Of a DNA stretch of 64,000 bases, positions 2,336-29,563 are shown one piece after another. The notes beneath the pieces were generated by a model that saw nothing but the letters and a program-made list of their open reading frames with translations, was not told where the DNA came from and did not search any database. Each line of letters starts with the position of its first letter. Positions within the stretch are counted from its first letter, which is position 1. The position numbers were made by a program, and so were the translations under genes. The stretch is from a virus. Location: positions 24,122 through 88,121 of IMG/VR virus record IMGVR_UViG_3300044712_001570; one strand, 5' to 3'.

Positions 2336-3564
2336 TGGCAAGCAGCCCTGACATTAACTTCGCATCCGCAATGCGCATAGCTAAAACAGCTATGCCATAT
2401 ATGACTGGAATGCTTATTAGATTCCAACTAATAATGCGCCCAGGTATGGGGACTATGGGAGTCGATTCTAAGTTCCGACTCTACATGGACCCTGCGGTAT
2501 TAACTCAGTGGTCGGTACATGAGATAGCAGGTGTACTCATTCATGAGTGTATGCACCTGTTCCTAGACCATCCTGGGAGGTGCGGAAGTAGAGACACAGG
2601 GCTATTCAATATTGCAGGTGACTTAGCTATTAATCCAGGTCTCAAAGCTGCAAGGCTACAGTTACCAGAGAAAGGGGTAATGCCCTCGGATTATGGGTTA
2701 CCAGATAATCTAACAGCTGACGAATATTACGTTAAGTTATTAGAGATTGGAGGTGGGGGTATCACTAATCCCAACCCTAATGGTAAACCAGGTACTGGTA
2801 ACTGCGGAGGGTGCGCTCATTCTAAAGATGATAATGACCAGACACAACAAGCCCAAAGCCTTGGAGCGGAGGGGGTAGATTCCTCTACTAAGCATCGAGT
2901 AGCTAAGGCTATGGCGGAAGAGATGCTCGCACATGCTAATGGTAAAGGGCGGGGTAGTGTGCCCGCCGGATGGTTAAGAGAAGCAGAACTACTATGCAAA
3001 CCTGCTACCATTCCGTGGGAGCGGGAACTTCAACGAATACTATTGACAGCCTGTGATTATAAGGCAGGTGCAGTAGTTCATACATTCAATAATCCTAGCC
3101 GTAGACAAGCAGGGTTAGGATATGGGGTTGGTAGCCCACGACTACCATATACCAGATGCCCTATTCCCGAAGTATGTATCTTCTTCGATACATCCGGCTC
3201 TATGAGCAAAGAGAACGTAGAGACAGGGTTGATTGAAGTGCAGTCAATCCTGAAAAGAGTTGGTGCTAATATAACGTTCATGTGCTGCGACCATGCAGTG
3301 CATGCTATTGTGAAAACTAATGATATTAATGTTATACTAAAGAACCTAAAGGGTGGTGGAGGTTCAAGCTTCACACCTGCTTTTGATGCCATAAAAACCC
3401 TAAAGAATGCCCCGAATATTGTGGTAGCATTCACCGACGGTGACATAGGAGTTCCGGAAGAGTGTCCTCCTGGGCTCACAGTTATATGGTGCCTAGTTGA
3501 GAGACACCATACCCCACCTACCGAGGCATGGGGCAGAGCCGTATGGTGCGTTAATAAGGATTGA
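2335..3564 (+). CDS. DUF2201-type HExxH metallopeptidase-VWA protein (MoxR partner)
   Basis: IHECMH, NIAGDLAIN, MIDAS DTSGS, GGGSSF and FTDG motifs. Confidence 0.88.
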   Translation: MASSPDINFASAMRIAKTAMPYMTGMLIRFQLIMRPGMGTMGVDSKFRLYMDPAVLTQWSVHEIAGVLIHECMHLFLDHPGRCGSRDTGLFNIAGDLAINPGLKAARLQLPEKGVMPSDYGLPDNLTADEYYVKLLEIGGGGITNPNPNGKPGTGNCGGCAHSKDDNDQTQQAQSLGAEGVDSSTKHRVAKAMAEEMLAHANGKGRGSVPAGWLREAELLCKPATIPWERELQRILLTACDYKAGAVVHTFNNPSRRQAGLGYGVGSPRLPYTRCPIPEVCIFFDTSGSMSKENVETGLIEVQSILKRVGANITFMCCDHAVHAIVKTNDINVILKNLKGGGGSSFTPAFDAIKTLKNAPNIVVAFTDGDIGVPEECPPGLTVIWCLVERHHTPPTEAWGRAVWCVNKD

Positions 3565-4497: not shown

Positions 4498-5126
4498 CAC
4501 AGCTAAAGACTACAATCGCACTAAAGCATGCGGATAATGTAGCAACTGCGGTTGCTGCTAGATATTATAAATCAAACCCAAGTGTGGTCTCCTTTGAAGA
4601 CCTAAAACAAGAAGCTTGGTTGACTATAGTTGATATAGACCATAGAGGCGGTTTCAATGCTACCAAAGGCGTAGAGTTTAGATACTACGCCTTTCAAGGT
4701 TGCGTTCGAATGCTGCAACGCATGATGTGGTCCAATAGCTCCCCAGTATCAGGGGTACATGCATCTAAATCCGATGCTAGGGATTATGCATGTAAAGGTC
4801 TAGCGTTTGATGATATAGCGGACCCAAGTAAAGTAAGGATGGCTAGTACTAGCAAACGTTTTTATGTATCGTTTAGCGAAGAAACATCAACCCTACCAAG
4901 CCAAGAAGAGGACTATCACTCCAATCAAATAAGAGCTGCACTAATAGATGCAGCTATGAGAGCTAGCATACCAATAGTAGCTGTTAGTGTTTTATTAGGT
5001 GAGGCTTCTATTGAGGAAGCTTCTAATGCATTAGGATGTACACCTAAACAGATGGAGGGTCACGCTAAGTACCTACAATCGATTCTCAAGTTTGATCCAA
5101 CCCTTTGGAGACTATGGAAAGAATGA
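4494..5126 (+). CDS. Phage sigma70-family (region 2 + region 4) sigma factor
   Basis: FEDLKQEAWL...FNATKGVEFRYYA resembles region 2; SIEEASNALGCTPKQM is an HTH. Confidence 0.75.
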   Translation: MTQLKTTIALKHADNVATAVAARYYKSNPSVVSFEDLKQEAWLTIVDIDHRGGFNATKGVEFRYYAFQGCVRMLQRMMWSNSSPVSGVHASKSDARDYACKGLAFDDIADPSKVRMASTSKRFYVSFSEETSTLPSQEEDYHSNQIRAALIDAAMRASIPIVAVSVLLGEASIEEASNALGCTPKQMEGHAKYLQSILKFDPTLWRLWKE

Positions 5127-5980
5127 AAGCTAATAAAAAAACCGCATCTGTATCCGCATTAGCAACGCAGTCCATCGTTATGGATTCTATTGTTGAATCA
5201 GGCCTTAACCCTAACTCAATGGGTAAAGATGCCTATCGACAACTGGTTGCTAATATACGCTTGAAAGGATTCCTTCAAGCAATTCTTGTTAGACTTGTAA
5301 AGCCAGAAACAGGTGGTAGCTATTACCAACTCATAGATGGCGCACATCGTATCAAAGCGATGAAGGAGATAGGTGAAACCAACATTCCTGCAATGATATT
5401 GGAATGCTCCGAGCCGGAAGCTATTGCACTTCGCATAGCTATGAATAGGCTTCGTGGTCAGGTTGATTTGGGTATTGCTAAGCAGCAACTCGAAGACCTA
5501 TTGAAAACACATCTATGGACCGCAGACCAAGTAGAGATAACAGGCTTTAGTGCTCAAGAGATTGCAGACCTTATACAACCTGTATTACCAGACCCGGAGC
5601 CTAATAACTCCATCCTAACATCACCAGATGATACAGGGGATGCACCTGCTACAGAACTCTCTGATGTATCGTTTACATTAGAGGTTGGAGGATTCGAATC
5701 CAAGTCTGCACTCAATACCATTCGAAAGAAACTGGTATCACTATCTACGGTTTCCCCTAAGCCCACCCTTGCAAGTGCATTGCGTTATCTTATTGATAAT
5801 GCTAACCCATCAATCTTCCCCATCAAGAAGAAGTCATCGAAGCCGAAGTTCCTCTACCAGGTATGGGGGAGGGACAATGCAAACCAGCCAGAGCTAATCC
5901 AAACCTATAAGAATAAAAAGCAAGCAGACGAGGAAGCTGCACTGGTTGGTGGTACGGTTACCGAAGTGCTAGATGACTGA
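5105..5980 (+). CDS. ParB/Sulfiredoxin-like N-terminal domain protein (start possibly 5123)
   Basis: NPN...GFLQAILVR...LIDGAHRIKA...MNRLRG motifs. Confidence 0.85.
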   Translation: METMERMKANKKTASVSALATQSIVMDSIVESGLNPNSMGKDAYRQLVANIRLKGFLQAILVRLVKPETGGSYYQLIDGAHRIKAMKEIGETNIPAMILECSEPEAIALRIAMNRLRGQVDLGIAKQQLEDLLKTHLWTADQVEITGFSAQEIADLIQPVLPDPEPNNSILTSPDDTGDAPATELSDVSFTLEVGGFESKSALNTIRKKLVSLSTVSPKPTLASALRYLIDNANPSIFPIKKKSSKPKFLYQVWGRDNANQPELIQTYKNKKQADEEAALVGGTVTEVLDD

Positions 5981-6192: not shown

Positions 6193-6436
6193 ACGTGGCC
6201 TTATAACTACAACCATACTTGCACAAGCTATTGCCAGACCAACTCGCTATATCCGAAGATTAATAACAAGGCGCAATGTAATAGCCATAAGGGATGGGTA
6301 CTCTTACTATATAGACCTTCTATCAGTAGAGGTCTATTATAGGACCTGTCGCAATACCATTGTACTACAACAGCTATCGGAGCTACGTAGGCAAATTCAA
6401 CAGTACCTATTAAGCAGGGATACCAAATGCTATTGA
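6185..6436 (+). CDS. Small excisionase/MerR-like winged-HTH protein (ORF track start 6137)
   Basis: ITTTILAQAIARPTRYIRRLI...AIRDGYSYYID pattern. Confidence 0.5.
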   Translation: MLRRGLITTTILAQAIARPTRYIRRLITRRNVIAIRDGYSYYIDLLSVEVYYRTCRNTIVLQQLSELRRQIQQYLLSRDTKCY

Positions 6437-7848
6437 ACATGCATAATACGACATGCGCTATTGTTAGTGCAACAGAAGCCGAGATGAAGTGGATAAGTGG
6501 GTACTTATCCTTTAGCAACTCGAAGGCATACTTTAGTGGGGGACCATCTAAGATAGGTCTTGTTAATGAGTTCAATAGGTCATTCCCCACAGGGTTCCTC
6601 CCTATGATTCGAAAGGCTGCTGCTACCGAGAATATTGAGATTCTTGCCCACGATAAAAGGATTGCACCAGCGACCTTTGATGCTGACGCGGAGATCACTT
6701 ATTTAAGAGACTATCAGCTAGATGCATTAGATGCAGTAGACTATCATAAGCGGGGTATACTCAATCACGCCACTGGAGCTGGAAAAACTCTGCTCACTGT
6801 AGCACTAACACAAGCCTATCAATGTCCTTGGGTTCTACTAACTCATAGAGGAAACCTAGCAGAGCAGACAGAGGATGAATACAATAGTCGAACCGGACTA
6901 ACATGTTCCACCCTTCGTAAGGGGGATAACTGGGTTAATGGTACCGGTAACCTAACCATATTCACATTCCAGTCTATTGCTCATAGAGTGCATGAACCTG
7001 TTATTAAAAACATACTTCTACAAGCTGGTGGGCTTATGATTGAGGAAGCCCATGTTCTACCCGCTGCAACGTTCTATAAAACGGCCCAAGCGTGCCCGGC
7101 CTACTTCCGGGTAGGTCTTTCTGCAACCCCGCTTGTACGGGGCGATAGACGGTCCATAATGGCCATTGCATCCCTTGGGCCGGTGATTCATAAAGTCTCT
7201 GCAGAAGAACTCATAAATAGAAACATATTAGCTAGGGCTAATATAACTATGTATGAGTACATGCATACTAAGCAAAGGTCTACAGACTATGCAGAAGTAA
7301 GGGAGGAGGAGATTGTAGATAGCGATGAACGTAACGAGTTGCTAATAGATATAATCCGAAAGGCAGAGAAACCATGCCTAGCCTTTATAACTATCAAAGA
7401 CCACGGCTTTAAGCTTAATAGGTTATTAGAACGTGCTGGGTTCAAGTCCTTGTTTGTGTATGGTACCAGCTCCCTATCATATAGAAAGAGGGTATGTAAG
7501 GACCTTAATAATGGGAAGCTAGATGTATTAGTAGCATCTAAGATACTTGATACGGGGCAAAACATACCTGAACTTCGTAGTGTTGTTAACTGCTCTGGAG
7601 GTAAGAGTGTTATAGAAGTAGTGCAGAAGTTAGGTCGTGGTATGCGACGCACTACTACTAAGACTGAGTTCGATATGTATGATGTATATGATAAGGGCTG
7701 TGGATGTGACCTAGCAGCTAAAGAGATGTTAGGTGAAAGGAGGTATGCACATAAGGCATGCGAATGGTTGGAACGTCACACCAAGATGAGGTGGAAGGCG
7801 TATACAGTAGAGAAACATTCTGTCAAGGTTGAGCCATTTACCCGTTGA
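6427..7848 (+). CDS. SF2 DNA helicase (UvsW/ResIII-like)
   Basis: LRDYQ Q-motif, ATGAGKT, variant motif II IEEAH, SATP, QKLGRGMR. Confidence 0.92.
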   Translation: MLLNMHNTTCAIVSATEAEMKWISGYLSFSNSKAYFSGGPSKIGLVNEFNRSFPTGFLPMIRKAAATENIEILAHDKRIAPATFDADAEITYLRDYQLDALDAVDYHKRGILNHATGAGKTLLTVALTQAYQCPWVLLTHRGNLAEQTEDEYNSRTGLTCSTLRKGDNWVNGTGNLTIFTFQSIAHRVHEPVIKNILLQAGGLMIEEAHVLPAATFYKTAQACPAYFRVGLSATPLVRGDRRSIMAIASLGPVIHKVSAEELINRNILARANITMYEYMHTKQRSTDYAEVREEEIVDSDERNELLIDIIRKAEKPCLAFITIKDHGFKLNRLLERAGFKSLFVYGTSSLSYRKRVCKDLNNGKLDVLVASKILDTGQNIPELRSVVNCSGGKSVIEVVQKLGRGMRRTTTKTEFDMYDVYDKGCGCDLAAKEMLGERRYAHKACEWLERHTKMRWKAYTVEKHSVKVEPFTR

Positions 7849-7873
7849 CTTGCGCCAAAGAGCGGCGCAATCT
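7845..7873 (+). promoter_or_regulatory. Putative promoter with an overlapping palindromic operator
   Basis: TTGACT-N17-CAATCT; TTGCGCC-N7-GGCGCAA at 7850-7870. Confidence 0.45.
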
Positions 7874-7900
7874 TTTCTTCTCCCCTATGGAAGGTGACCC

Positions 7901-8038
7901 ATGACTATACTGGATGAGATGCATAGTAGAAGGCTGAATGGACCCATACAGCAACTAGTGAATGCGCTAGGCTGTGGGTGGTCTAGCGAACAACCATTTG
8001 CTAGCATCTCCGCTGTTGTGTGGGTCCCTTCAGCCTAG
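7901..8038 (+). CDS. Putative 45-aa leader peptide (MTILDEMHSRRLNGP...VVWVPSA)
   Basis: SD GGAAGGT upstream; open frame traverses the long hairpin and stops 9 nt before the 8048 ATG. Confidence 0.55.
   Translation: MTILDEMHSRRLNGPIQQLVNALGCGWSSEQPFASISAVVWVPSA
7931..8036 (+). promoter_or_regulatory. Long structured RNA element upstream of the initiator-like gene
   Basis: 23-nt arms 7931-7953 and 8014-8036 pair with two G-U pairs and one mismatch; inner CGCTAG/CTAGCG hairpin. Confidence 0.7.
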
Positions 8039-8047
8039 CTTAATAAC

Positions 8048-9286
8048 ATGTATACTACTCAACTATCACGTAGTAAGGCGAAGCCACATTCGCTTAGTGC
8101 TAAAGAGCTGGAGAGACGTATAGGCTCTACTACCTATATGGTATGGCAGGGTATATATGATGCTCGCAACGTATGGACTGGCACTACTCTTATATCTCGT
8201 GATGAACTAGCTACCGAGTTAGGTATATCCCCTCATACTGTTAAAGACTGTTTATCCCGTTTACATAAGCTGCAACTCGTTAGGACTGTAGGTCGCATGC
8301 AGGGCGGGAGAGTATGGCGACATATAGTTGGTTCCATATGGCATGGTCAGCTATGCCTACCTGTCAAGGTCTATGATGCACTCATGCTCAACAAGGGTCG
8401 TGGAGGGTTCCGTGCGAACGCCGGACGACCAAGAAAAGATGGAAATCCACCTATGCGAAGAAGCTCTTCCCTACCCCCTCAAGATAGCTCTGCATTGATA
8501 ATCAAAACACCCCCGTGTTTTAAGATCTTAAATATTAAAGATCTTAAGATCTCTGTTTCTCTTTCTGAAGAAAGAGAAAGGCAAGCTGGTGCTTGCGTCG
8601 ATTCTAAAACTTTAGTCGGGAGGGATATAGCTCAACGCTTACCGGGTGTACCGAAGTTCATAAGCGTTAGTACTCTCTCGAATGTATATACACCCGATCC
8701 GCCAAGGCTAGACCCTAAAGCACACCCGCATGTTCATACCCGACTGATAGTGAAGTGGATTGAGGGTTGCTATAAAGCATACCTAGGTAAGCGCTGTTGG
8801 ATGTTTATATCCGAGAAGAAACCACTCGAACAGTCTAAGCGGTTTCCGCTATTGTTAGATGCAGCTAAAGCTTTTATTGAGAATGATATATCACCCGCGC
8901 TTTGGTTTGCATGGTCATTCAACTTCTGGAATCAGAATAAGACTAAGAAGGCTATGCCACCACTTGCATGGTTATTATCTCCTAAGCGTATGGCAGAACG
9001 TAGTGGATGGTTTCATTCAGAAGCTGCATTCACTATGGGATGCCGTATGCAGTACAATGATACTGAGCGCAAGTTCATGCTATTGCAGCATCGTATGATT
9101 ACTGAACTTTCTTTATTAACCGTTGAGGAGTGTACTGATTACAAGGTGCAATCTATTGTTCATAAATACTTTCCGAAAGGGTTATATGACAACATTGTTC
9201 AAGAGATAAAGTCGGATGCTATTATGAGACAGATGGAACTCAGTGATGCAGTTGCAAGAGGAGAATGGTTATGGGGAGCCCTATAG
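8048..9286 (+). CDS. HTH replication initiator-like protein
   Basis: N-terminal wHTH (SRDELATELGISPHTVKDCLSRL), AT-hook-like RGGFRANAGRPRK; directly upstream of DnaB; internal repeats. Confidence 0.65.
   Translation: MYTTQLSRSKAKPHSLSAKELERRIGSTTYMVWQGIYDARNVWTGTTLISRDELATELGISPHTVKDCLSRLHKLQLVRTVGRMQGGRVWRHIVGSIWHGQLCLPVKVYDALMLNKGRGGFRANAGRPRKDGNPPMRRSSSLPPQDSSALIIKTPPCFKILNIKDLKISVSLSEERERQAGACVDSKTLVGRDIAQRLPGVPKFISVSTLSNVYTPDPPRLDPKAHPHVHTRLIVKWIEGCYKAYLGKRCWMFISEKKPLEQSKRFPLLLDAAKAFIENDISPALWFAWSFNFWNQNKTKKAMPPLAWLLSPKRMAERSGWFHSEAAFTMGCRMQYNDTERKFMLLQHRMITELSLLTVEECTDYKVQSIVHKYFPKGLYDNIVQEIKSDAIMRQMELSDAVARGEWLWGAL
8519..8579. repeat. Putative replication origin: palindromic AGATCT repeats and an inverted repeat
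   Basis: TTTAAGATCTTAAA (8519-8532), AGATCTTAAGATCT (8539-8552), TTTCTCTTTC-TGAA-GAAAGAGAAA (8556-8579). Confidence 0.55.
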
Positions 9287-10644
9287 TTCATGCAAACGTT
9301 CCCATGGGTGTTACACCCTACGGGTTTGATAGTAACTACGAAAGAGCAGTTGTTTATTATCTAGCATCTAATCCTAAGTTCTTCGGTCGTATAGGTAGTG
9401 CTATTGAACCTGATTGTTTAGCAGATGAAACAGCTCGCAGTATTACTAGGGCTGCACAATCGATAGCACATGACTGTGGTACCGGTCCTGATAGTACAAC
9501 CCTTATTCTTCAGCGTATGCGTGGATGGTTCAAAGAGGGTAAGATATTAGAAGAAACTGTTTATAACGCAGTTGAATACTTTGATGCTGTAGAAGCAGAT
9601 ATGTCAAAGCTTCCATCATGGGAGAAGTGCTTACCCGATCTTATAGCTATCATTAAACGCCGTATGGAGTGGACAGCACTTCAAACAGGTCTAAAAGAAT
9701 ACTCACATCGTGGTGATACTAGTCGTGTAGTTGATATATTCAATAAGGCTAAAAGACTAGGTACAACCGATGATGGAGTAGGCTCCCGCATAGGCAGAGC
9801 GTCCCTACAAGGTATTAAGGTCTTAGCAGAAGCTGATAAGGTGCAAACAGGTATCTTAGAGCTTGACGACTATCTTCGAGGTGGAAGAATGCGGGGTACC
9901 CTTTGGATGTGGATGGGTAGACCTGGAAGCGGTAAGTCTATGGGTTTAGTAGGGGATGCATGTGCAGCAGCCTATCAAGGCCACCTAGTATGCGCTGCGA
10001 CATGTGAGTTAGCTCAAAGTCTATGGGAAGCTCGAATCAATGCTCACCTAACGGGTATCTCGATCGATGAGATATTAGCTAACCCAATGTGCATTGAGGA
10101 GCAGATAGATACTATAACAACCGCACCAGGCTTTGGTGGTATCATAGTTAAAGCTTTTCAGTCTGGGGTATCAACAGTAGAAGATGTATTTGATTGGACT
10201 AAGCATTGTGAAGATATGTATGGGTGTAAATGCTCTACCCTTGTTGTTGATTATCTTGATAAGCTAAAATCAAGGGAGAGGATTAAAGATAGATACGAGG
10301 AGCTAGGGGTTATATCAGATAAGCTTTTCTATTATGCAAGGGATGGTGAACGTTGGTCCACTACAGCTACACAAGCTAGGAGAGGTGATAAGAATAAAAA
10401 AGGTAAGTCCTCCAGATTAGAGCAGGAGGATATGGGCGACAGCGATCTTAAGTCTCGTAATACCGATTACCTATGTACTATCAATCCAGAGGATGATGGG
10501 TATAATAGTCTATTCATTGCAAAGAACAGGGTTGGTCCTGCTGGTAAATCCGTAGGACCCTTCCCGACAGACTTCTCCATAGCCAGGCTTGCACCTACTG
10601 TATTCCTTCCCCCTTGGAGTGGTAACACACCATGCCCACAATAA
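9265..10644 (+). CDS. dnaB: DnaB-like replicative helicase
   Basis: Walker A GRPGSGKS, catalytic TCE, VVDYLD, ATQ, AKNRVG. Confidence 0.9.
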   Translation: MVMGSPIVHANVPMGVTPYGFDSNYERAVVYYLASNPKFFGRIGSAIEPDCLADETARSITRAAQSIAHDCGTGPDSTTLILQRMRGWFKEGKILEETVYNAVEYFDAVEADMSKLPSWEKCLPDLIAIIKRRMEWTALQTGLKEYSHRGDTSRVVDIFNKAKRLGTTDDGVGSRIGRASLQGIKVLAEADKVQTGILELDDYLRGGRMRGTLWMWMGRPGSGKSMGLVGDACAAAYQGHLVCAATCELAQSLWEARINAHLTGISIDEILANPMCIEEQIDTITTAPGFGGIIVKAFQSGVSTVEDVFDWTKHCEDMYGCKCSTLVVDYLDKLKSRERIKDRYEELGVISDKLFYYARDGERWSTTATQARRGDKNKKGKSSRLEQEDMGDSDLKSRNTDYLCTINPEDDGYNSLFIAKNRVGPAGKSVGPFPTDFSIARLAPTVFLPPWSGNTPCPQ

Positions 10645-10865
10645 TAATAAGATGGGCTATTAGATGCCATATATTAGGTTCGAAGGTTATACTATGGGTT
10701 AAGCGTACCAACCATGATTGGTGGCCTGGATGGACTCCTAATAAATCCGAACGGTGGTTACTACGAAGTAAAAAGGAAGCTAAGAAGATTGTAAAGTATC
10801 GTAGGTATTATTCCGCTCCTCAAAGGCTAAAGGTAACCTTAGTAAAGGTTCGGGTACATGCGTGA
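10632..10865 (+). CDS. Small basic hypothetical protein
   Basis: Fills the gap between helicase and primase, overlapping both. Confidence 0.55.
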   Translation: MPTIIIRWAIRCHILGSKVILWVKRTNHDWWPGWTPNKSERWLLRSKKEAKKIVKYRRYYSAPQRLKVTLVKVRVHA

Positions 10866-11736
10866 TAGCCACGTTATTATACAGACCCAGCTATTATCTA
10901 AACGTCCTAACTCAAAAGGTTGGGTACGTGTTAATTGTCCACTATGTGTAGAGCGTGGTGAACCTACGCCAGATAAAAAGCTATCGCTAGGTGTACAGGT
11001 TAATAGTGGTTGGTTTCATTGCTGGAGATGCGATGCGAAAGGGTTCCTAGATGGTACCGATCGAACAGACTTTGAAAAGCGAGCACCTAAAGATGGATTC
11101 AAATCCATTGACCTACCAGAAGGTTTCTTCCTTCTTGATGAAAATAAATGCGAATCTTTGCAACCAGCATGGGACTATCTGACCAATCATCGCAATCTAT
11201 CAGAGGACGAGATAAGGCTGCATTGTATTGGTGCATGCCTAACAGGTAGGTTTGCAGGTAGAGTAGTTATACCAGTGTACTCTAACGATGACCGTATAGT
11301 CTATTGGGTCACCAGAAAGTGGGTAAGAAAATGTAGTAAACCCTATTTAAATCCTTCTCATGAAAGGGAAGGGCTATTCTTTGGTGAGGAGTTATTAGTA
11401 GAAGAGAGTAGTATTCCCCTCTTATGTGTTGAGGGGGTGTTTGATGCAATAGCACACTATCCCCATGCAGTTGCAACCTTAGGTAAGGTAACAGAACCCC
11501 ATCTCGAACGATTAATGAAGGTTAGGAGACCAGTGGTATTCGTTCGAGATGGGGATGCAAGAGATGAGGGAATATGCTGTGCACTACGTATGCAGATGAA
11601 TGGATTTGCATATGGAACAGGGTCAGTAGACCTAGGCGCAAAGGTAGACCCGGATGAAATAACACATGAAGTATTAATGTACGAAGCAGAGTTATCTCTA
11701 ACAACATGGAAAGCCATCATGGAGCAAAGACAATGA
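10858..11736 (+). CDS. DNA primase (zinc finger + TOPRIM)
   Basis: CPLC...CWRC zinc finger; VEGVFDAIA and DGD TOPRIM motifs. Confidence 0.9.
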   Translation: MRDSHVIIQTQLLSKRPNSKGWVRVNCPLCVERGEPTPDKKLSLGVQVNSGWFHCWRCDAKGFLDGTDRTDFEKRAPKDGFKSIDLPEGFFLLDENKCESLQPAWDYLTNHRNLSEDEIRLHCIGACLTGRFAGRVVIPVYSNDDRIVYWVTRKWVRKCSKPYLNPSHEREGLFFGEELLVEESSIPLLCVEGVFDAIAHYPHAVATLGKVTEPHLERLMKVRRPVVFVRDGDARDEGICCALRMQMNGFAYGTGSVDLGAKVDPDEITHEVLMYEAELSLTTWKAIMEQRQ

Positions 11737-22872: not shown

Positions 22873-24630
22873 CTATACACCATAGCCAACGATGTATCCA
22901 TAGTTTCGGTAGGCTACTCCTGTGTAGTTAGCAGTCGATACCATCTTGCTCATAAAGATCTTGATTCGAGTAGAGCTAGTTCCGTAACCAGCTGCATCAG
23001 GAGACGGTTGCAGATAAACTCTAATGCGCTTCTCATAAATAGATGCAGGTGGGTCACCTAGGTATGGTGTTTGGCTTACGATGTAGGCTCTATCAATAAT
23101 AGAGTTTTCTGCCTGCACATCAACTTCGTTAGCTCCACCTAGCGTATCACTAACAGCTGCTACGTTTACTAATATATCAACATATTTAGCATTAGCAGGT
23201 ATTGCTGATGCCCCCGCAGTTGTAATATTAGTTCCGGAAGGTGTTAGGGTTGTTTCCCACTGGTACCAGGACGACGAATCAGTTGTCTCGGTAAATACGA
23301 GGGAATGCGCTATAGTTCCTCGCCATGGGAAGGATAGACCAGGTGAAACCCAACCTGCAGAAGCAGGTTCGATATGAGTACCTAATATATTGATAGGGCA
23401 ATAAGCTGCAGTACCTGAACTCGAATAGGTAAACTCTGCAACTTGAACACCTAACCATGGGGCATTACCAAACCCCATAGAAGCTTTGAGACTTGTAGTA
23501 GGAGTAATATAACCACTTCTCACAACACCTATTGCGGATTTAGCAGCCGTTGCAAAGACTCCATTAGGACCCTTTGGAAACCTGCCCGTTATAGCTGCTG
23601 TTGCATAGGTATCCGCAGCAACTACAGATTCCAGTGCCCTTGCATATCGAACGAATCTAGTAGGGAACTGGTATGGTATAAAGCAGCAAAGTACATTTAG
23701 ATGTCCTGCTGTTAGGTCTAATGCCCTACAGTTATTATTAGCACTTGCTATATCAACGTAGTCAATATCGGTACCAAAGCTTCCCTCAGATAAAGTTGGG
23801 AACATTAGCCCACCAAGCTCTACCCCGGAAACCTTAGCTTTCCAAACTCCATACTCCCTAGTCTCTGCTGCTCCCGATCGAACACCCCATACGTTGTTTT
23901 CGTTAGAATATTCGATATGTACCGAGCTAGCCGCTCCACCTTCATACGTTGGATTAGGTGCATCCGCAAAGTATCTAACATCGTAGAAGTCGCAGCTAGC
24001 GAAGTTAGTACTTGATGGGTATACAAGAATAACCGCTAGGGGAATCCAGTCAGGGTCGATGGTAGGAGCTACACCAACGGTACCAACTCGAATGCGCCAA
24101 TCAAATATAGCTTCACTTACCTTGGTAACCGGGTTGGGTACGAACTTTCGTGTGGTCTGGTTATAGATATCCCTACTGACACCTGTCTCGGTTGCAGTGT
24201 CTACCGGACGGCATTCAACTATATCCACCCGGGTATTACCACCACTATTAGGTGTAAATACCAACGTAGTTATATCTGTTAGCCCTGGAGTACTTGCAGA
24301 TATAATATCAGAATCATCTGTACTGCCAGTGGGTCCAGTCCAATAAAGAACTGTACCAGGGTCTACTAATAAGTAGCTTGGTGCATCTGGACGAACCATA
24401 AGACCACCAATAATGCGATGGTGACTAGGTGCAGACGCATGAACAGGGTCTGCACTCCATTCTGCATCGACACCAGGATAGGCACCATTAGAACCAATCT
24501 TTCTTCTTTGCCCTTGATGCTTCTGCGCAGTAGTTCTTGCCTTCGCAATAAAGGCTTGCATCCGCATAAAGTCATCGGAGACTAGCCGTTCGCGTGTATT
24601 GAATACTTCTCTCTTTTCGCCGTTTGCCAT
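22873..24630 (-). CDS. Baseplate-anchored tail fibre/receptor-binding protein
   Basis: Follows wedge genes; NTRVDIVEC...WIPLAVI...DVR fibre-anchor-like motif; SD AGGAG. Confidence 0.65.
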   Translation of the reverse strand: MANGEKREVFNTRERLVSDDFMRMQAFIAKARTTAQKHQGQRRKIGSNGAYPGVDAEWSADPVHASAPSHHRIIGGLMVRPDAPSYLLVDPGTVLYWTGPTGSTDDSDIISASTPGLTDITTLVFTPNSGGNTRVDIVECRPVDTATETGVSRDIYNQTTRKFVPNPVTKVSEAIFDWRIRVGTVGVAPTIDPDWIPLAVILVYPSSTNFASCDFYDVRYFADAPNPTYEGGAASSVHIEYSNENNVWGVRSGAAETREYGVWKAKVSGVELGGLMFPTLSEGSFGTDIDYVDIASANNNCRALDLTAGHLNVLCCFIPYQFPTRFVRYARALESVVAADTYATAAITGRFPKGPNGVFATAAKSAIGVVRSGYITPTTSLKASMGFGNAPWLGVQVAEFTYSSSGTAAYCPINILGTHIEPASAGWVSPGLSFPWRGTIAHSLVFTETTDSSSWYQWETTLTPSGTNITTAGASAIPANAKYVDILVNVAAVSDTLGGANEVDVQAENSIIDRAYIVSQTPYLGDPPASIYEKRIRVYLQPSPDAAGYGTSSTRIKIFMSKMVSTANYTGVAYRNYGYIVGYGV

Positions 24631-28240: not shown

Positions 28241-29039
28241 TGGTTGCAAGACCATTCGTAGTAGTTCGCATCTGCACTTTACCCTTCTTAACACCCGGGT
28301 CTTGCGTTATCTGCTTTTCATAGTCTGCTATCTTGGTCTGTCGCTCCGAAGCAGTTAGCAACCTTTTACCAAGGTCATAGATACCAACACCCCATCCAGG
28401 TAGATGAGCAAAGCCATCTTTCTTGGTTATACCTATGCGAAGTACTCTCTTCTGCAATCCTATAGCACCGTCATCATATGCATAATCACCTGTATCATCT
28501 GCTCTGTAGGTACCTAGGTATTCATCGACATTAGGTAACCCAAGTAAAGACTTTGCTGTTTGCGGATTAGCAAAGTCTCTTCCACTAGCTTCTAATGCAC
28601 TGTTAGCAGGTTCTACCTTCTGGTGCATTGATGGGATGCTAGCAGTTGTTACAGTGAATACATATGCAAGGTTATTGGTCCATAGCCAATCTGCTTGAAG
28701 GGAATATTGGGCAGGCCATGGAGTCATAGGACGGTCTAGGTATAAGTCAATAATACTTTGACCTAAGGCATCGGTACCAACTTCAACAACGCTAACAACC
28801 GTCACAGGCCATACCGTGGACCCCTCTAGCCCTGTTGTATTAGCTACGGGTGAAACAACCCACTTAGCAGGGTAGGAAGCGTCCTCTGCATCTAAAAGGC
28901 CTGTAAAGTAGGCCGCAAAGGGCAATGTCACCCGGATCACATTCTCCCGTAATGCAATAGCATCTGCGGTACCTGTCATAGGGGTGATAGAACTTCCATC
29001 ACCCCATGGAGTGCTTCCCCATAGTGTTCCATAAGGCAT
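28173..29039 (-). CDS. gp25-like baseplate wedge/sheath initiator with N-terminal extension
   Basis: TGDY...LQKRV...T.K..FAHLPGWGVG...QDPGV pattern. Confidence 0.75.
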   Translation of the reverse strand: MPYGTLWGSTPWGDGSSITPMTGTADAIALRENVIRVTLPFAAYFTGLLDAEDASYPAKWVVSPVANTTGLEGSTVWPVTVVSVVEVGTDALGQSIIDLYLDRPMTPWPAQYSLQADWLWTNNLAYVFTVTTASIPSMHQKVEPANSALEASGRDFANPQTAKSLLGLPNVDEYLGTYRADDTGDYAYDDGAIGLQKRVLRIGITKKDGFAHLPGWGVGIYDLGKRLLTASERQTKIADYEKQITQDPGVKKGKVQMRTTTNGLATIIVLVEPFEGSPSKYELALPEQ

Positions 29040-29563
29040 TAGGGGTTCCTCGCTGTATGGCTAGACTGTTGATGCTCCGTCTTTAAAGCGTTCACCATAT
29101 TGGTATACATGTTCCACTGAGCCCATGCGACACCAGCTATTCCAACTAGTATTCCAACTAGCATAGGAACAATCCACGCTTCCCTGCTTAGCTTGGTTTT
29201 TATTCGTACAGATGCATCCTTCTCTGCAACCTTTTCTCTTTCAGCTCGTTGTGTTTCAAACTGTATGAGCTGCTTGAGATCAGTCGATTGCTCTTTGAGC
29301 ATACCTTCATGACCTTGGAGCTTGGTATCGACTGCGGATGTATGGCGTTCCCATGCCCGGAAGGTTGTTTGCATCTCGTGTTCACTCCTATCACTGACTG
29401 TCTTGGCTTCTAGCGCTTGGTCCTGTGCCCGCTTTACCTCACTACGCACATGATTCACTTCATTCGTAAGAGTATTAATGGAACTATGAAGCAGACGCAC
29501 ATCCTCCGATAAGGATTGGATTGCGTGCTGCATCTGGCATGGTTGGTCGTGATTAGGCGGCAT
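29039..29563 (-). CDS. Coiled-coil protein with C-terminal TM helix (possible lysis/holin-like)
   Basis: Coiled coil, then WIVPMLVGILVGIAGVAW. Confidence 0.6.
   Translation of the reverse strand: MPPNHDQPCQMQHAIQSLSEDVRLLHSSINTLTNEVNHVRSEVKRAQDQALEAKTVSDRSEHEMQTTFRAWERHTSAVDTKLQGHEGMLKEQSTDLKQLIQFETQRAEREKVAEKDASVRIKTKLSREAWIVPMLVGILVGIAGVAWAQWNMYTNMVNALKTEHQQSSHTARNP

Follow-up and report, generated by a model that had tools for sequence, protein, structure and literature searches.

A candidate translational control at the head of a soil phage replication operon: a leader reading frame that runs through a long branched hairpin

Ahead of the putative replication initiator gene of an uncultured soil phage, known as the 88,121-bp IMG/VR virus record IMGVR_UViG_3300044712_001570, lies a region that is most likely a translational control at the head of a replication operon, where it would be likely to set the amount of the initiator. 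The analysis covered the window, that is, a whole 64-kb stretch (64,000 nucleotides, positions 24,122 to 88,121 of the record), whose numbering is used throughout unless a position is marked as a genome coordinate. The replication module of this phage is encoded on the plus strand and comprises, in order, a ParB_N-domain protein, an SF2 helicase, a 199-nt gap (7849-8047), a winged-helix protein that we take as the initiator, a DnaB-like helicase and a primase-like gene. The gap holds a 45-codon leader open reading frame (ORF) and a 106-nt branched hairpin through which this ORF runs. Our preferred reading, to which we assign a probability of about 0.45, is that the leader is translated and that the ribosomes terminating at its end reinitiate at the initiator ATG.

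The leader ORF (7901-8038, plus strand) ends in TAG and has a second in-frame ATG at 7919. It is preceded by the Shine-Dalgarno (SD) sequence GGAAGGTGA (7889-7897, plus strand), whose core AGGTGA, located 3 nt before the ATG, is an exact 6-nt match to the complement of the anti-SD. The duplex energy is -11.2 kcal/mol, and a match of at least 6 nt is found at only 2.2% of the ATG triplets in the genome; a bona fide gene of the window, at 29039-29563 (minus strand), has GAGGTGA at a spacing equal to that of the leader SD. The leader start is predicted to be accessible, with an opening cost of 7.8 kcal/mol. Among dinucleotide shuffles of the gap, 4.2% contain a start-to-stop frame that opens ahead of the hairpin, runs through it and stops at most 12 nt from the initiator start; for such a frame to occur together with an SD of this quality, the probability is about 0.042 x 0.022. 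The TAG (8036-8038) consists of the last base of the stem and the next two, and is followed by an A/U-rich spacer of 9 nt, CTTAATAAC (8039-8047, plus strand), which contains no SD and is predicted to be unpaired. The initiator ATG at 8048 likewise lacks an SD (duplex energy -0.3 kcal/mol). A preliminary description, made by a reader who saw the letters and the ORF list, had pointed to the strong SD, to the frame running through the hairpin and to a stop at the hairpin base 9 nt before an SD-less initiator ATG, and each of these features was confirmed. With its good SD, a frame that stays open through a 106-nt structure and an upstream motif described below, the leader ORF has the look of a genuine unit of translation, and its stop appears to be placed for termination and reinitiation at the SD-less ATG.

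The hairpin (7931-8036, plus strand) lies entirely within the leader ORF. Its basal stem joins 7931-7953 to 8014-8036, two arms of 23 nt each with 87% complementarity, and the inner hairpins at 7955-7970 and 7974-8013 complete a three-way junction. On the plus strand, the three differences between the arms are one U/C mismatch and two G-U pairs. The minimum free energy of the 121-nt segment 7925-8045 is -61.6 kcal/mol (z = -6.8 against dinucleotide shuffles), and no other 120-nt segment on either strand of the 88-kb record is as stable (residual z after correction for GC content, -5.3). The minus strand folds at -47.5 kcal/mol. The 14 kcal/mol gain of the plus strand is due to seven G-U pairs and therefore argues for an RNA of the sense strand over duplex DNA. 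The geometry given in the preliminary description, including the two G-U-compatible arm differences, was thus found as described, and the structure is favoured on the sense strand. In Rfam, the tRNA was the one family to reach the gathering score, and a search with 7700-8200 that admitted E values up to 10 brought up only snoRNA rows at chance level. An 11-nt complementarity between the hairpin loop at 7991-8001 and 7760-7770 was judged to be at chance level.

The strand difference also bears on the proposal that the inverted repeat acts as DNA, serving as an origin, as a cruciform or operator bound by the initiator, or as a single-strand initiation signal. The repeat adjoins the initiator gene, CTAG is at its densest in the window here (5 copies in 120 nt), and the inner palindromes share CTAG(T/C)G arms. 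However, the more stable fold is that of the plus strand, the seven G-U pairs become A-C mismatches on the other strand, and the region is not A+T-rich. Moreover, in the relatives treated below the stem covaries and a binding sequence is not kept, and iteron-like repeats, the usual signature of an origin, lie inside the initiator gene here as well as in two relatives, L003 and L008. We consider a DNA role quite improbable.

Directly upstream of the leader is a candidate promoter or expression signal, TTGACT-N17-CAATCT (7846-7874, plus strand), which holds the motif GCGCAATC at 7865-7872; the TGA stop of the SF2 helicase gene sits within its hexamer TTGACT. In the 88-kb record, GCGCAATC occurs eight times on the plus strand and not at all on the minus strand, where about one copy per strand would be expected from base composition. 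Four copies lie in the window (7865-7872, 3793, 15593 and 39734) and four upstream of it (genome 8088, 13711, 15822 and 19479). Five of the eight are followed after 19-28 nt by an SD and an ATG, which open ORFs of 25 to 158 codons; the distance is 28 nt at the leader and 19-26 nt at the other four. At two copies, TTGA(C/G)T stands exactly 17 nt before CAATCT, namely at the 7846 site and at genome 19459 (TTGAGT-N17-CAATCT). We propose that GCGCAATC is probably a phage-specific signal for expression; in the simplest case it would belong to a promoter whose -10 region is unusual. The mRNA would then begin near 7880, past the GCGCAATCT signal, and so would carry the leader SD and ATG. A terminator scan also marked a terminator-like hairpin on the plus strand directly past the helicase stop (7850-7880; a 7-bp stem and a 7-nt loop, then a T-rich run), whose 3' arm forms part of GCGCAATC. 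A sigma-54 promoter was also considered here and rejected, as the GG-to-GC spacing does not suit one.

In the mechanism that we favour, ribosomes would bind at the strong SD and, in translating the 45 codons of the leader, would have to unwind the 106-nt hairpin. On reaching the TAG at the base of the stem they would terminate, and a fraction of them would reinitiate 9 nt downstream at the SD-less initiator ATG. The peptide would have no function of its own; its translation would deliver ribosomes to the initiator start and hold the hairpin melted. If the leader were left untranslated, the hairpin would re-form and place a stem of about 22 bp 12 nt before the initiator start. This stem could hinder standby binding of the 30S subunit and could be a substrate of the length required by RNase III, which is the step of the scheme that we trust least. 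The net effect would be a low and fixed ratio of initiator to leader translation, that is, a control of dose or timing. The hairpin would make the coupling depend on active translation, and may also serve RNA processing or stability.

We examined this proposal against related loci. Close relatives were found neither in INPHARED (DNA and protein) nor in IMG/VR (initiator and DnaB-like protein queries) nor among metagenome contigs. Pattern scans derived from the homologue alignment recovered a few syntenic loci at 23-37% protein identity; two alignments, A1 and A4, were too divergent for such scans, and queries with the proteins of L003 and L004 led back to the contigs of these two loci alone. 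L003, L004 (identical to L007) and L008 show the SF2 helicase, a gap, the initiator homologue and the DnaB-like gene in this order, and the L002 contig, which begins just upstream of the initiator gene, displays the initiator-to-DnaB order. In L010 (46% GC), the initiator ATG overlaps the helicase stop (ATGA, 1171-1174), and the gap and the hairpin are absent. This gene family thus includes a case in which the initiator is coupled to the ORF ahead of it.

Long hairpins precede the initiator gene in L002 (164-281), L003 (2769-2902) and L004 (2149-2263), all with a GC content of 65-71%. They measure 115-135 nt, have their 3' ends 0-8 nt from the initiator start and reach z values of -4.3 to -8.2; the sense strand is the more stable one in two of the three. 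Past the SF2 helicase gene, the window has at 7931-8036 a hairpin that fits the same description, taken as a length of 105-140 nt and a 3' end 0-12 nt ahead of the initiator. Alignment of the three relatives' hairpins (A7) yields a 28-bp basal stem and four more pairs, with 92.5% of the cells paired, compared with 36-46% when the pairing partners are slid, and compensatory double changes in 12 of the 32 pairs, compared with 1-3 in the slid controls. A degenerate two-arm pattern derived from the three hairpins and run on IMG/VR recovered only L002 and L004, and two matches in metagenome-assembled genomes of Myxococcales, in which homologues of the initiator, the helicase and DnaB are not encoded, were dismissed as chance. 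In place, size and orientation the window hairpin matches those of the relatives, and we regard it as an analogue of them and at most a candidate homologue. As a separate observation, the 8-mer TGCATAGT follows the helicase gene in the window (7920-7927), in L003 (2672-2679) and in L005 (2552-2559; also in L006 and L009), each time in frame as (A/T)TG CAT AGT. The 9-mer ATGCATAGT is common to the window and L003, and the lineages with the shared word differ by 20% in GC content. The 8-mer was considered as a -10 box or as a conserved 'MHS' start, and neither reading was adopted, since its enrichment in this genome is slight and its distance from the hairpin changes from locus to locus.

Several results weigh against the coupling that we favour. 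Opening the segment from -12 to +13 around the initiator ATG costs only 6.0 kcal/mol, rank 90 of the 107 gene starts, so that SD-independent initiation de novo is possible at this A/U-rich start region, and an SD-less start is not unusual, an SD being missing from roughly a third of the long ORFs of the window. With a covariance model of the hairpins of the three relatives, no match was obtained in the window at E up to 10; the model scores its own members at 106-116 bits. The ORFs that cross the hairpins of L002, L003 and L004 end NTGA on the initiator start and encode unrelated peptides; each had a 33-39% chance of occurring in shuffles, given A as the fourth base, and, set against the aligned stem, they are in different frames. 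The sole promoter-like site of L003, and likewise that of L004 (sigma-70-like; 0.0 expected in shuffles), stands past the candidate leader start and directly ahead of the hairpin, so that it is the hairpin that is conserved and not the leader. Finally, a consensus sigma-70 scan listed no promoter on the plus strand of 6989-9029, the 7846 signal scoring below its threshold, and the proposed mRNA 5' end at about 7880 is deduced from the motif.

A claim of the preliminary description has to be revised in the light of these results. It had the hairpin gating the initiator, and gating by sequestration is not upheld: the stem ends at -12 and leaves the initiator start uncovered, and the start opens at the low cost given above. 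When the segment is taken from -20 to +13, the cost is 16.0 kcal/mol and the rank 16 of 107. Sequestration is plausible in L002 and L004, where an SD-like GGAG or GAGG appears within the 3' arm of the hairpin. As for the covariation in homologues that it had named as a check, this is present among the hairpins of L002, L003 and L004, but their model misses the window hairpin. The model is narrow (1.7 effective sequences, all of high GC content), which lowers the claim of membership and not the analogy.

The same results give their weight to a different view, in which the hairpin is a structured 5' leader that acts without a translated leader, the ORF and its SD are incidental, and the initiator is translated de novo. 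The hairpin might then be a stabiliser against RNase E/J, an RNase III site at which cleavage leaves the mRNA with a short leader free of structure, or an obstacle that slows the loading of 30S subunits. This view is in keeping with a hairpin that covaries where the ORF does not, with the accessible initiator start of the window and the frequency of SD-less starts in this phage, and with the promoter-like sites of L003 and L004, one in each, which end 10 to 16 nt before the hairpin, so that the main mRNA there probably has the hairpin at its 5' end. With 22-28 bp, the basal stems would also be long enough for RNase III, which is known to require such a length. On the other side stands the low joint chance of the open frame and the SD. 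Moreover, GCGCAATC precedes the leader SD in the way it precedes other gene starts, and it does not adjoin the hairpin. The -10-like signal is 55-58 nt from the stem in the window, compared with 9-15 nt in the relatives, and the extra stretch of the window holds exactly the SD, the ATG and ten codons. We regard the structured leader as the main rival, though less probable than reinitiation from the leader. The simplest history would be that the hairpin is old and that the leader was added or kept by this lineage.

A broader proposal can be made. The long hairpin would be an undescribed cis-regulatory RNA of a widespread, unannotated phage initiator family, opened in a different way in each lineage: by the leader ORF here, by the overlap with the helicase gene in L010, and perhaps by RNase III or by the initiator itself in the high-GC lineages. 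We consider this rather unlikely; if true, the hairpin would be an evolvable switch that links initiator dose to translation or to RNA processing.

The leader could also be an ordinary small phage gene with a functional protein, on whose mRNA the hairpin is superimposed. Its SD is good, and other GCGCAATC copies precede ORFs of 25, 61 and 69 codons. However, the leader peptide has no homologue among 5.8 billion clusters and no match in Pfam or PHROG, 106 of its 135 coding bases are tied into one structure, so that a protein sequence under selection would have little room, and the hairpin-crossing frames of the relatives give unrelated peptides. A functional small protein is therefore improbable in our judgement. 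The leader and the initiator gene moreover share one frame (8048 - 7901 = 147), a point missed in the preliminary description, and only the TAG and three codons stand between them, so that read-through of the TAG would yield an initiator isoform with an N-terminal extension; L003 likewise has an in-frame TAG upstream of its initiator frame. This can hardly be credited, given that a shared frame has a one-in-three chance, that TAG is a normal stop ending 31 of the 107 ORFs, and that recoding brings no gain in coding density, on which ground a genome-wide recoding of TAG was rejected. The sole tRNA is a tRNA-Met, no suppressor tRNA being found, and the N-terminal extensions seen in homologues are unrelated stretches of low complexity. 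With TAG in normal use as a stop and a suppressor tRNA lacking, we take the shared frame as chance.

The initiator gene (8048-9286, plus strand) encodes 412 aa and matches the O-like family phrog_678 at E 2.4e-4. The protein is predicted to consist of a winged helix (about 14-114), a disordered linker (about 137-184) and an all-helical C-terminal domain (about 195-410), with an AlphaFold confidence (pLDDT) of 85 for the whole protein and 94 for the C-terminal domain alone. A fold search with the whole protein gave only generic winged-helix matches at Z of about 8, and one with the C-terminal domain gave generic helical bundles at a best Z of 5.7, none of them convincing. The C-terminal domain (residues 193-412, window 8624-9283) belongs to no Pfam family and has no sequence match in PDB, and an Atlas search returned only unnamed clusters and a weak T4 gp59-like row at 0.91. 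An exhaustive profile-free search gave 644 representative homologues of this domain, many of them stand-alone proteins of 180-280 aa, and one homologue, P0030, has weak matches to PHROGs of DnaD-like loaders and initiators. In L005 (2545-3576; also in L006 and L009), the initiator is split: a 67-codon gene with a strong SD (ATG 2597, TAG 2797) occupies the place of the winged helix, and a 244-aa protein with the C-terminal domain only follows in the same frame. The identification of the gene as a replication initiator, made in the preliminary description, is plausible in view of the winged helix, the weak O-like match, the overlap with the DnaB-like gene and the repeats in the linker-coding DNA, which are likewise found in two relatives. 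It is well supported by context, not by family membership.

These repeats mark a candidate origin. Two to three copies of a TTAAGATCTTAA-type palindrome occupy 8519-8552, in iteron-like fashion, in the DNA that encodes the linker, so that a predicted N-terminal DNA-binding domain and linker repeats occur together. Direct repeats lie at the equivalent site of the initiator gene in L003 (three of 18 nt, 3405-3467) and L008 (four of 19 nt, 2805-2931). An inverted repeat is also present at about 8556-8580, past the TTAAGATCTTAA-type repeats. In phage lambda, the origin lies inside the O gene, whose product has an N-terminal DNA-binding domain, a linker and a C-terminal domain, with repeats in the linker-coding DNA. 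The window gene resembles lambda O in its domain layout, in the repeats of the linker DNA and in its position directly before a helicase or loader gene. This arrangement supports the initiator label and an origin inside the gene, and the origin is likely to be at the linker repeats, not at the hairpin. The two proteins differ in that their sequence relation is limited to the O-like PHROG match, that the C-domain family of the phage is unannotated, and that the next gene encodes the phage's own DnaB-like helicase where lambda has the P loader.

Several genes and other features frame the region. The ParB_N-domain protein is encoded at 5105-5980 (plus strand) and the 473-aa SF2 helicase at 6427-7848 (plus strand), the latter with matches to Pfam ResIII (E 2.6e-17) and Helicase_C (E 3.4e-13) and to the DNA helicase family phrog_16 (E 8.9e-58). 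The DnaB-like replicative helicase gene (9265-10644, plus strand; Pfam DnaB_C E 3.2e-10, phrog_19 E 4.9e-37) starts 22 nt before the end of the initiator gene, which it overlaps, and the primase-like gene is at 10858-11736 (plus strand). Over the whole window, several tetranucleotides depart from expectation (observed versus expected: AATT 36/382, GATC 76/244, CGCG 36/156, ACGT 111/244, TTAA 191/382, and the over-represented TGCA 556/244), which suggests restriction-site avoidance or a host signature. Over the genome as a whole, AATT, GATC and TTAA are likewise strongly depleted. The window is present in one rhizosphere metagenome, and a contig from a second rhizosphere metagenome study matches it at 100% over 7871-8370; the same phage genotype is present in two studies. 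Because this identical contig is independent, the TAG and the hairpin are not assembly errors. A search of sequencing runs found the stretch in two DNA runs and listed no RNA run, and as the copy in the DNA run other than the source is identical over 7871-8370, there is no micro-variation from which covariation could be read.

Leader-ORF coupling is textbook matter for plasmid Rep genes, but to our knowledge few cases have been documented in which large lytic-type phages use it in their replication modules. In plasmid R1 (IncFII), Blomberg et al. reportedly found in 1992 that translation of tap is needed for translation of repA and that the leader product is functionless. An antisense RNA, CopA, whose target is CopT, blocks tap translation there, and RNase III cuts the duplex. 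The phage resembles R1 in the closeness of the leader stop to the initiator start. It differs in that the R1 leader has 24 codons and lacks a 106-nt branched hairpin, whereas the phage leader has 45 codons and no antisense promoter or terminator was found: the minus strand of 7589-10000 has no promoter-like site and, on that strand, no T-run follows the hairpin, in a consensus scan that may miss an unusual promoter. For repY-repZ of IncI-alpha/IncB/IncL-M, Praszkier et al. are said to have described in 1992 a leader coupled to rep, in which the leader ribosome opens a structure at the junction. These plasmids need a pseudoknot between an upstream loop and the rep ribosome-binding site (RBS), together with an antisense RNA, whereas complementarity between the phage loops and the tail is nil; the loops AAUG and CAACCA pair with 8037-8075 at -0.2 and +0.3 kcal/mol, and pairing of the IncI type is absent. 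The plasmid-type control proposed in the preliminary description stands with respect to a leader ORF with its own RBS and a stop that adjoins the initiator start, but not with respect to a masked RBS or a pseudoknot.

Hairpins cut by RNase III also lie between phage genes, as in the early region of T7 and in the lambda N leader, where cleavage sometimes alters downstream translation. The hairpin of the window shares with them a long, near-perfect stem with an internal or branched top on a phage mRNA. However, the T7 and lambda N sites are not known to be embedded in a translated ORF, and the hairpin of the window is within the leader ORF.

A close counterpart in arrangement is S004-repA of SGI1, where Rep is made only if ribosomes translate a leader ORF into or through a stem-loop (PMC7826253), and for which R1 tap-repA and IncB are cited as cases in the same paper (PMC7826253). 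Like this system and those of the IncN2/N3 type, the phage has a short leader ORF upstream, a long inverted repeat at the junction and a stop near the start, and in both cases the mechanism proposed is that ribosomes melt the structure and then reinitiate (PMC7826253). In SGI1 the stem-loop masks the SD and the start of repA and the two ORFs overlap by four codons, whereas in the phage the stem ends 12 nt before the start and the ORFs are 9 nt apart. The phage also differs in that the whole hairpin lies inside the leader and the SD-less ATG is predicted to be open, and in being known from its sequence alone. As we read it, the region is a phage version of a known plasmid control, and no new principle. 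The control of copy number or timing that was first suggested has to be narrowed in the same way, as copy number is an analogy with plasmids; control of initiator dosage or timing is the more cautious wording for a phage that is this large and has its own replisome.

If our preferred reading is true, phages with their own replisome would also limit the dose of their initiator after transcription, and an uncharacterised group of soil phages would gain a defined RNA element and a candidate origin. The arrangement joins a hairpin that covaries in distant relatives with an initiator family of 644 representative members that matches neither a Pfam family nor a known structure.

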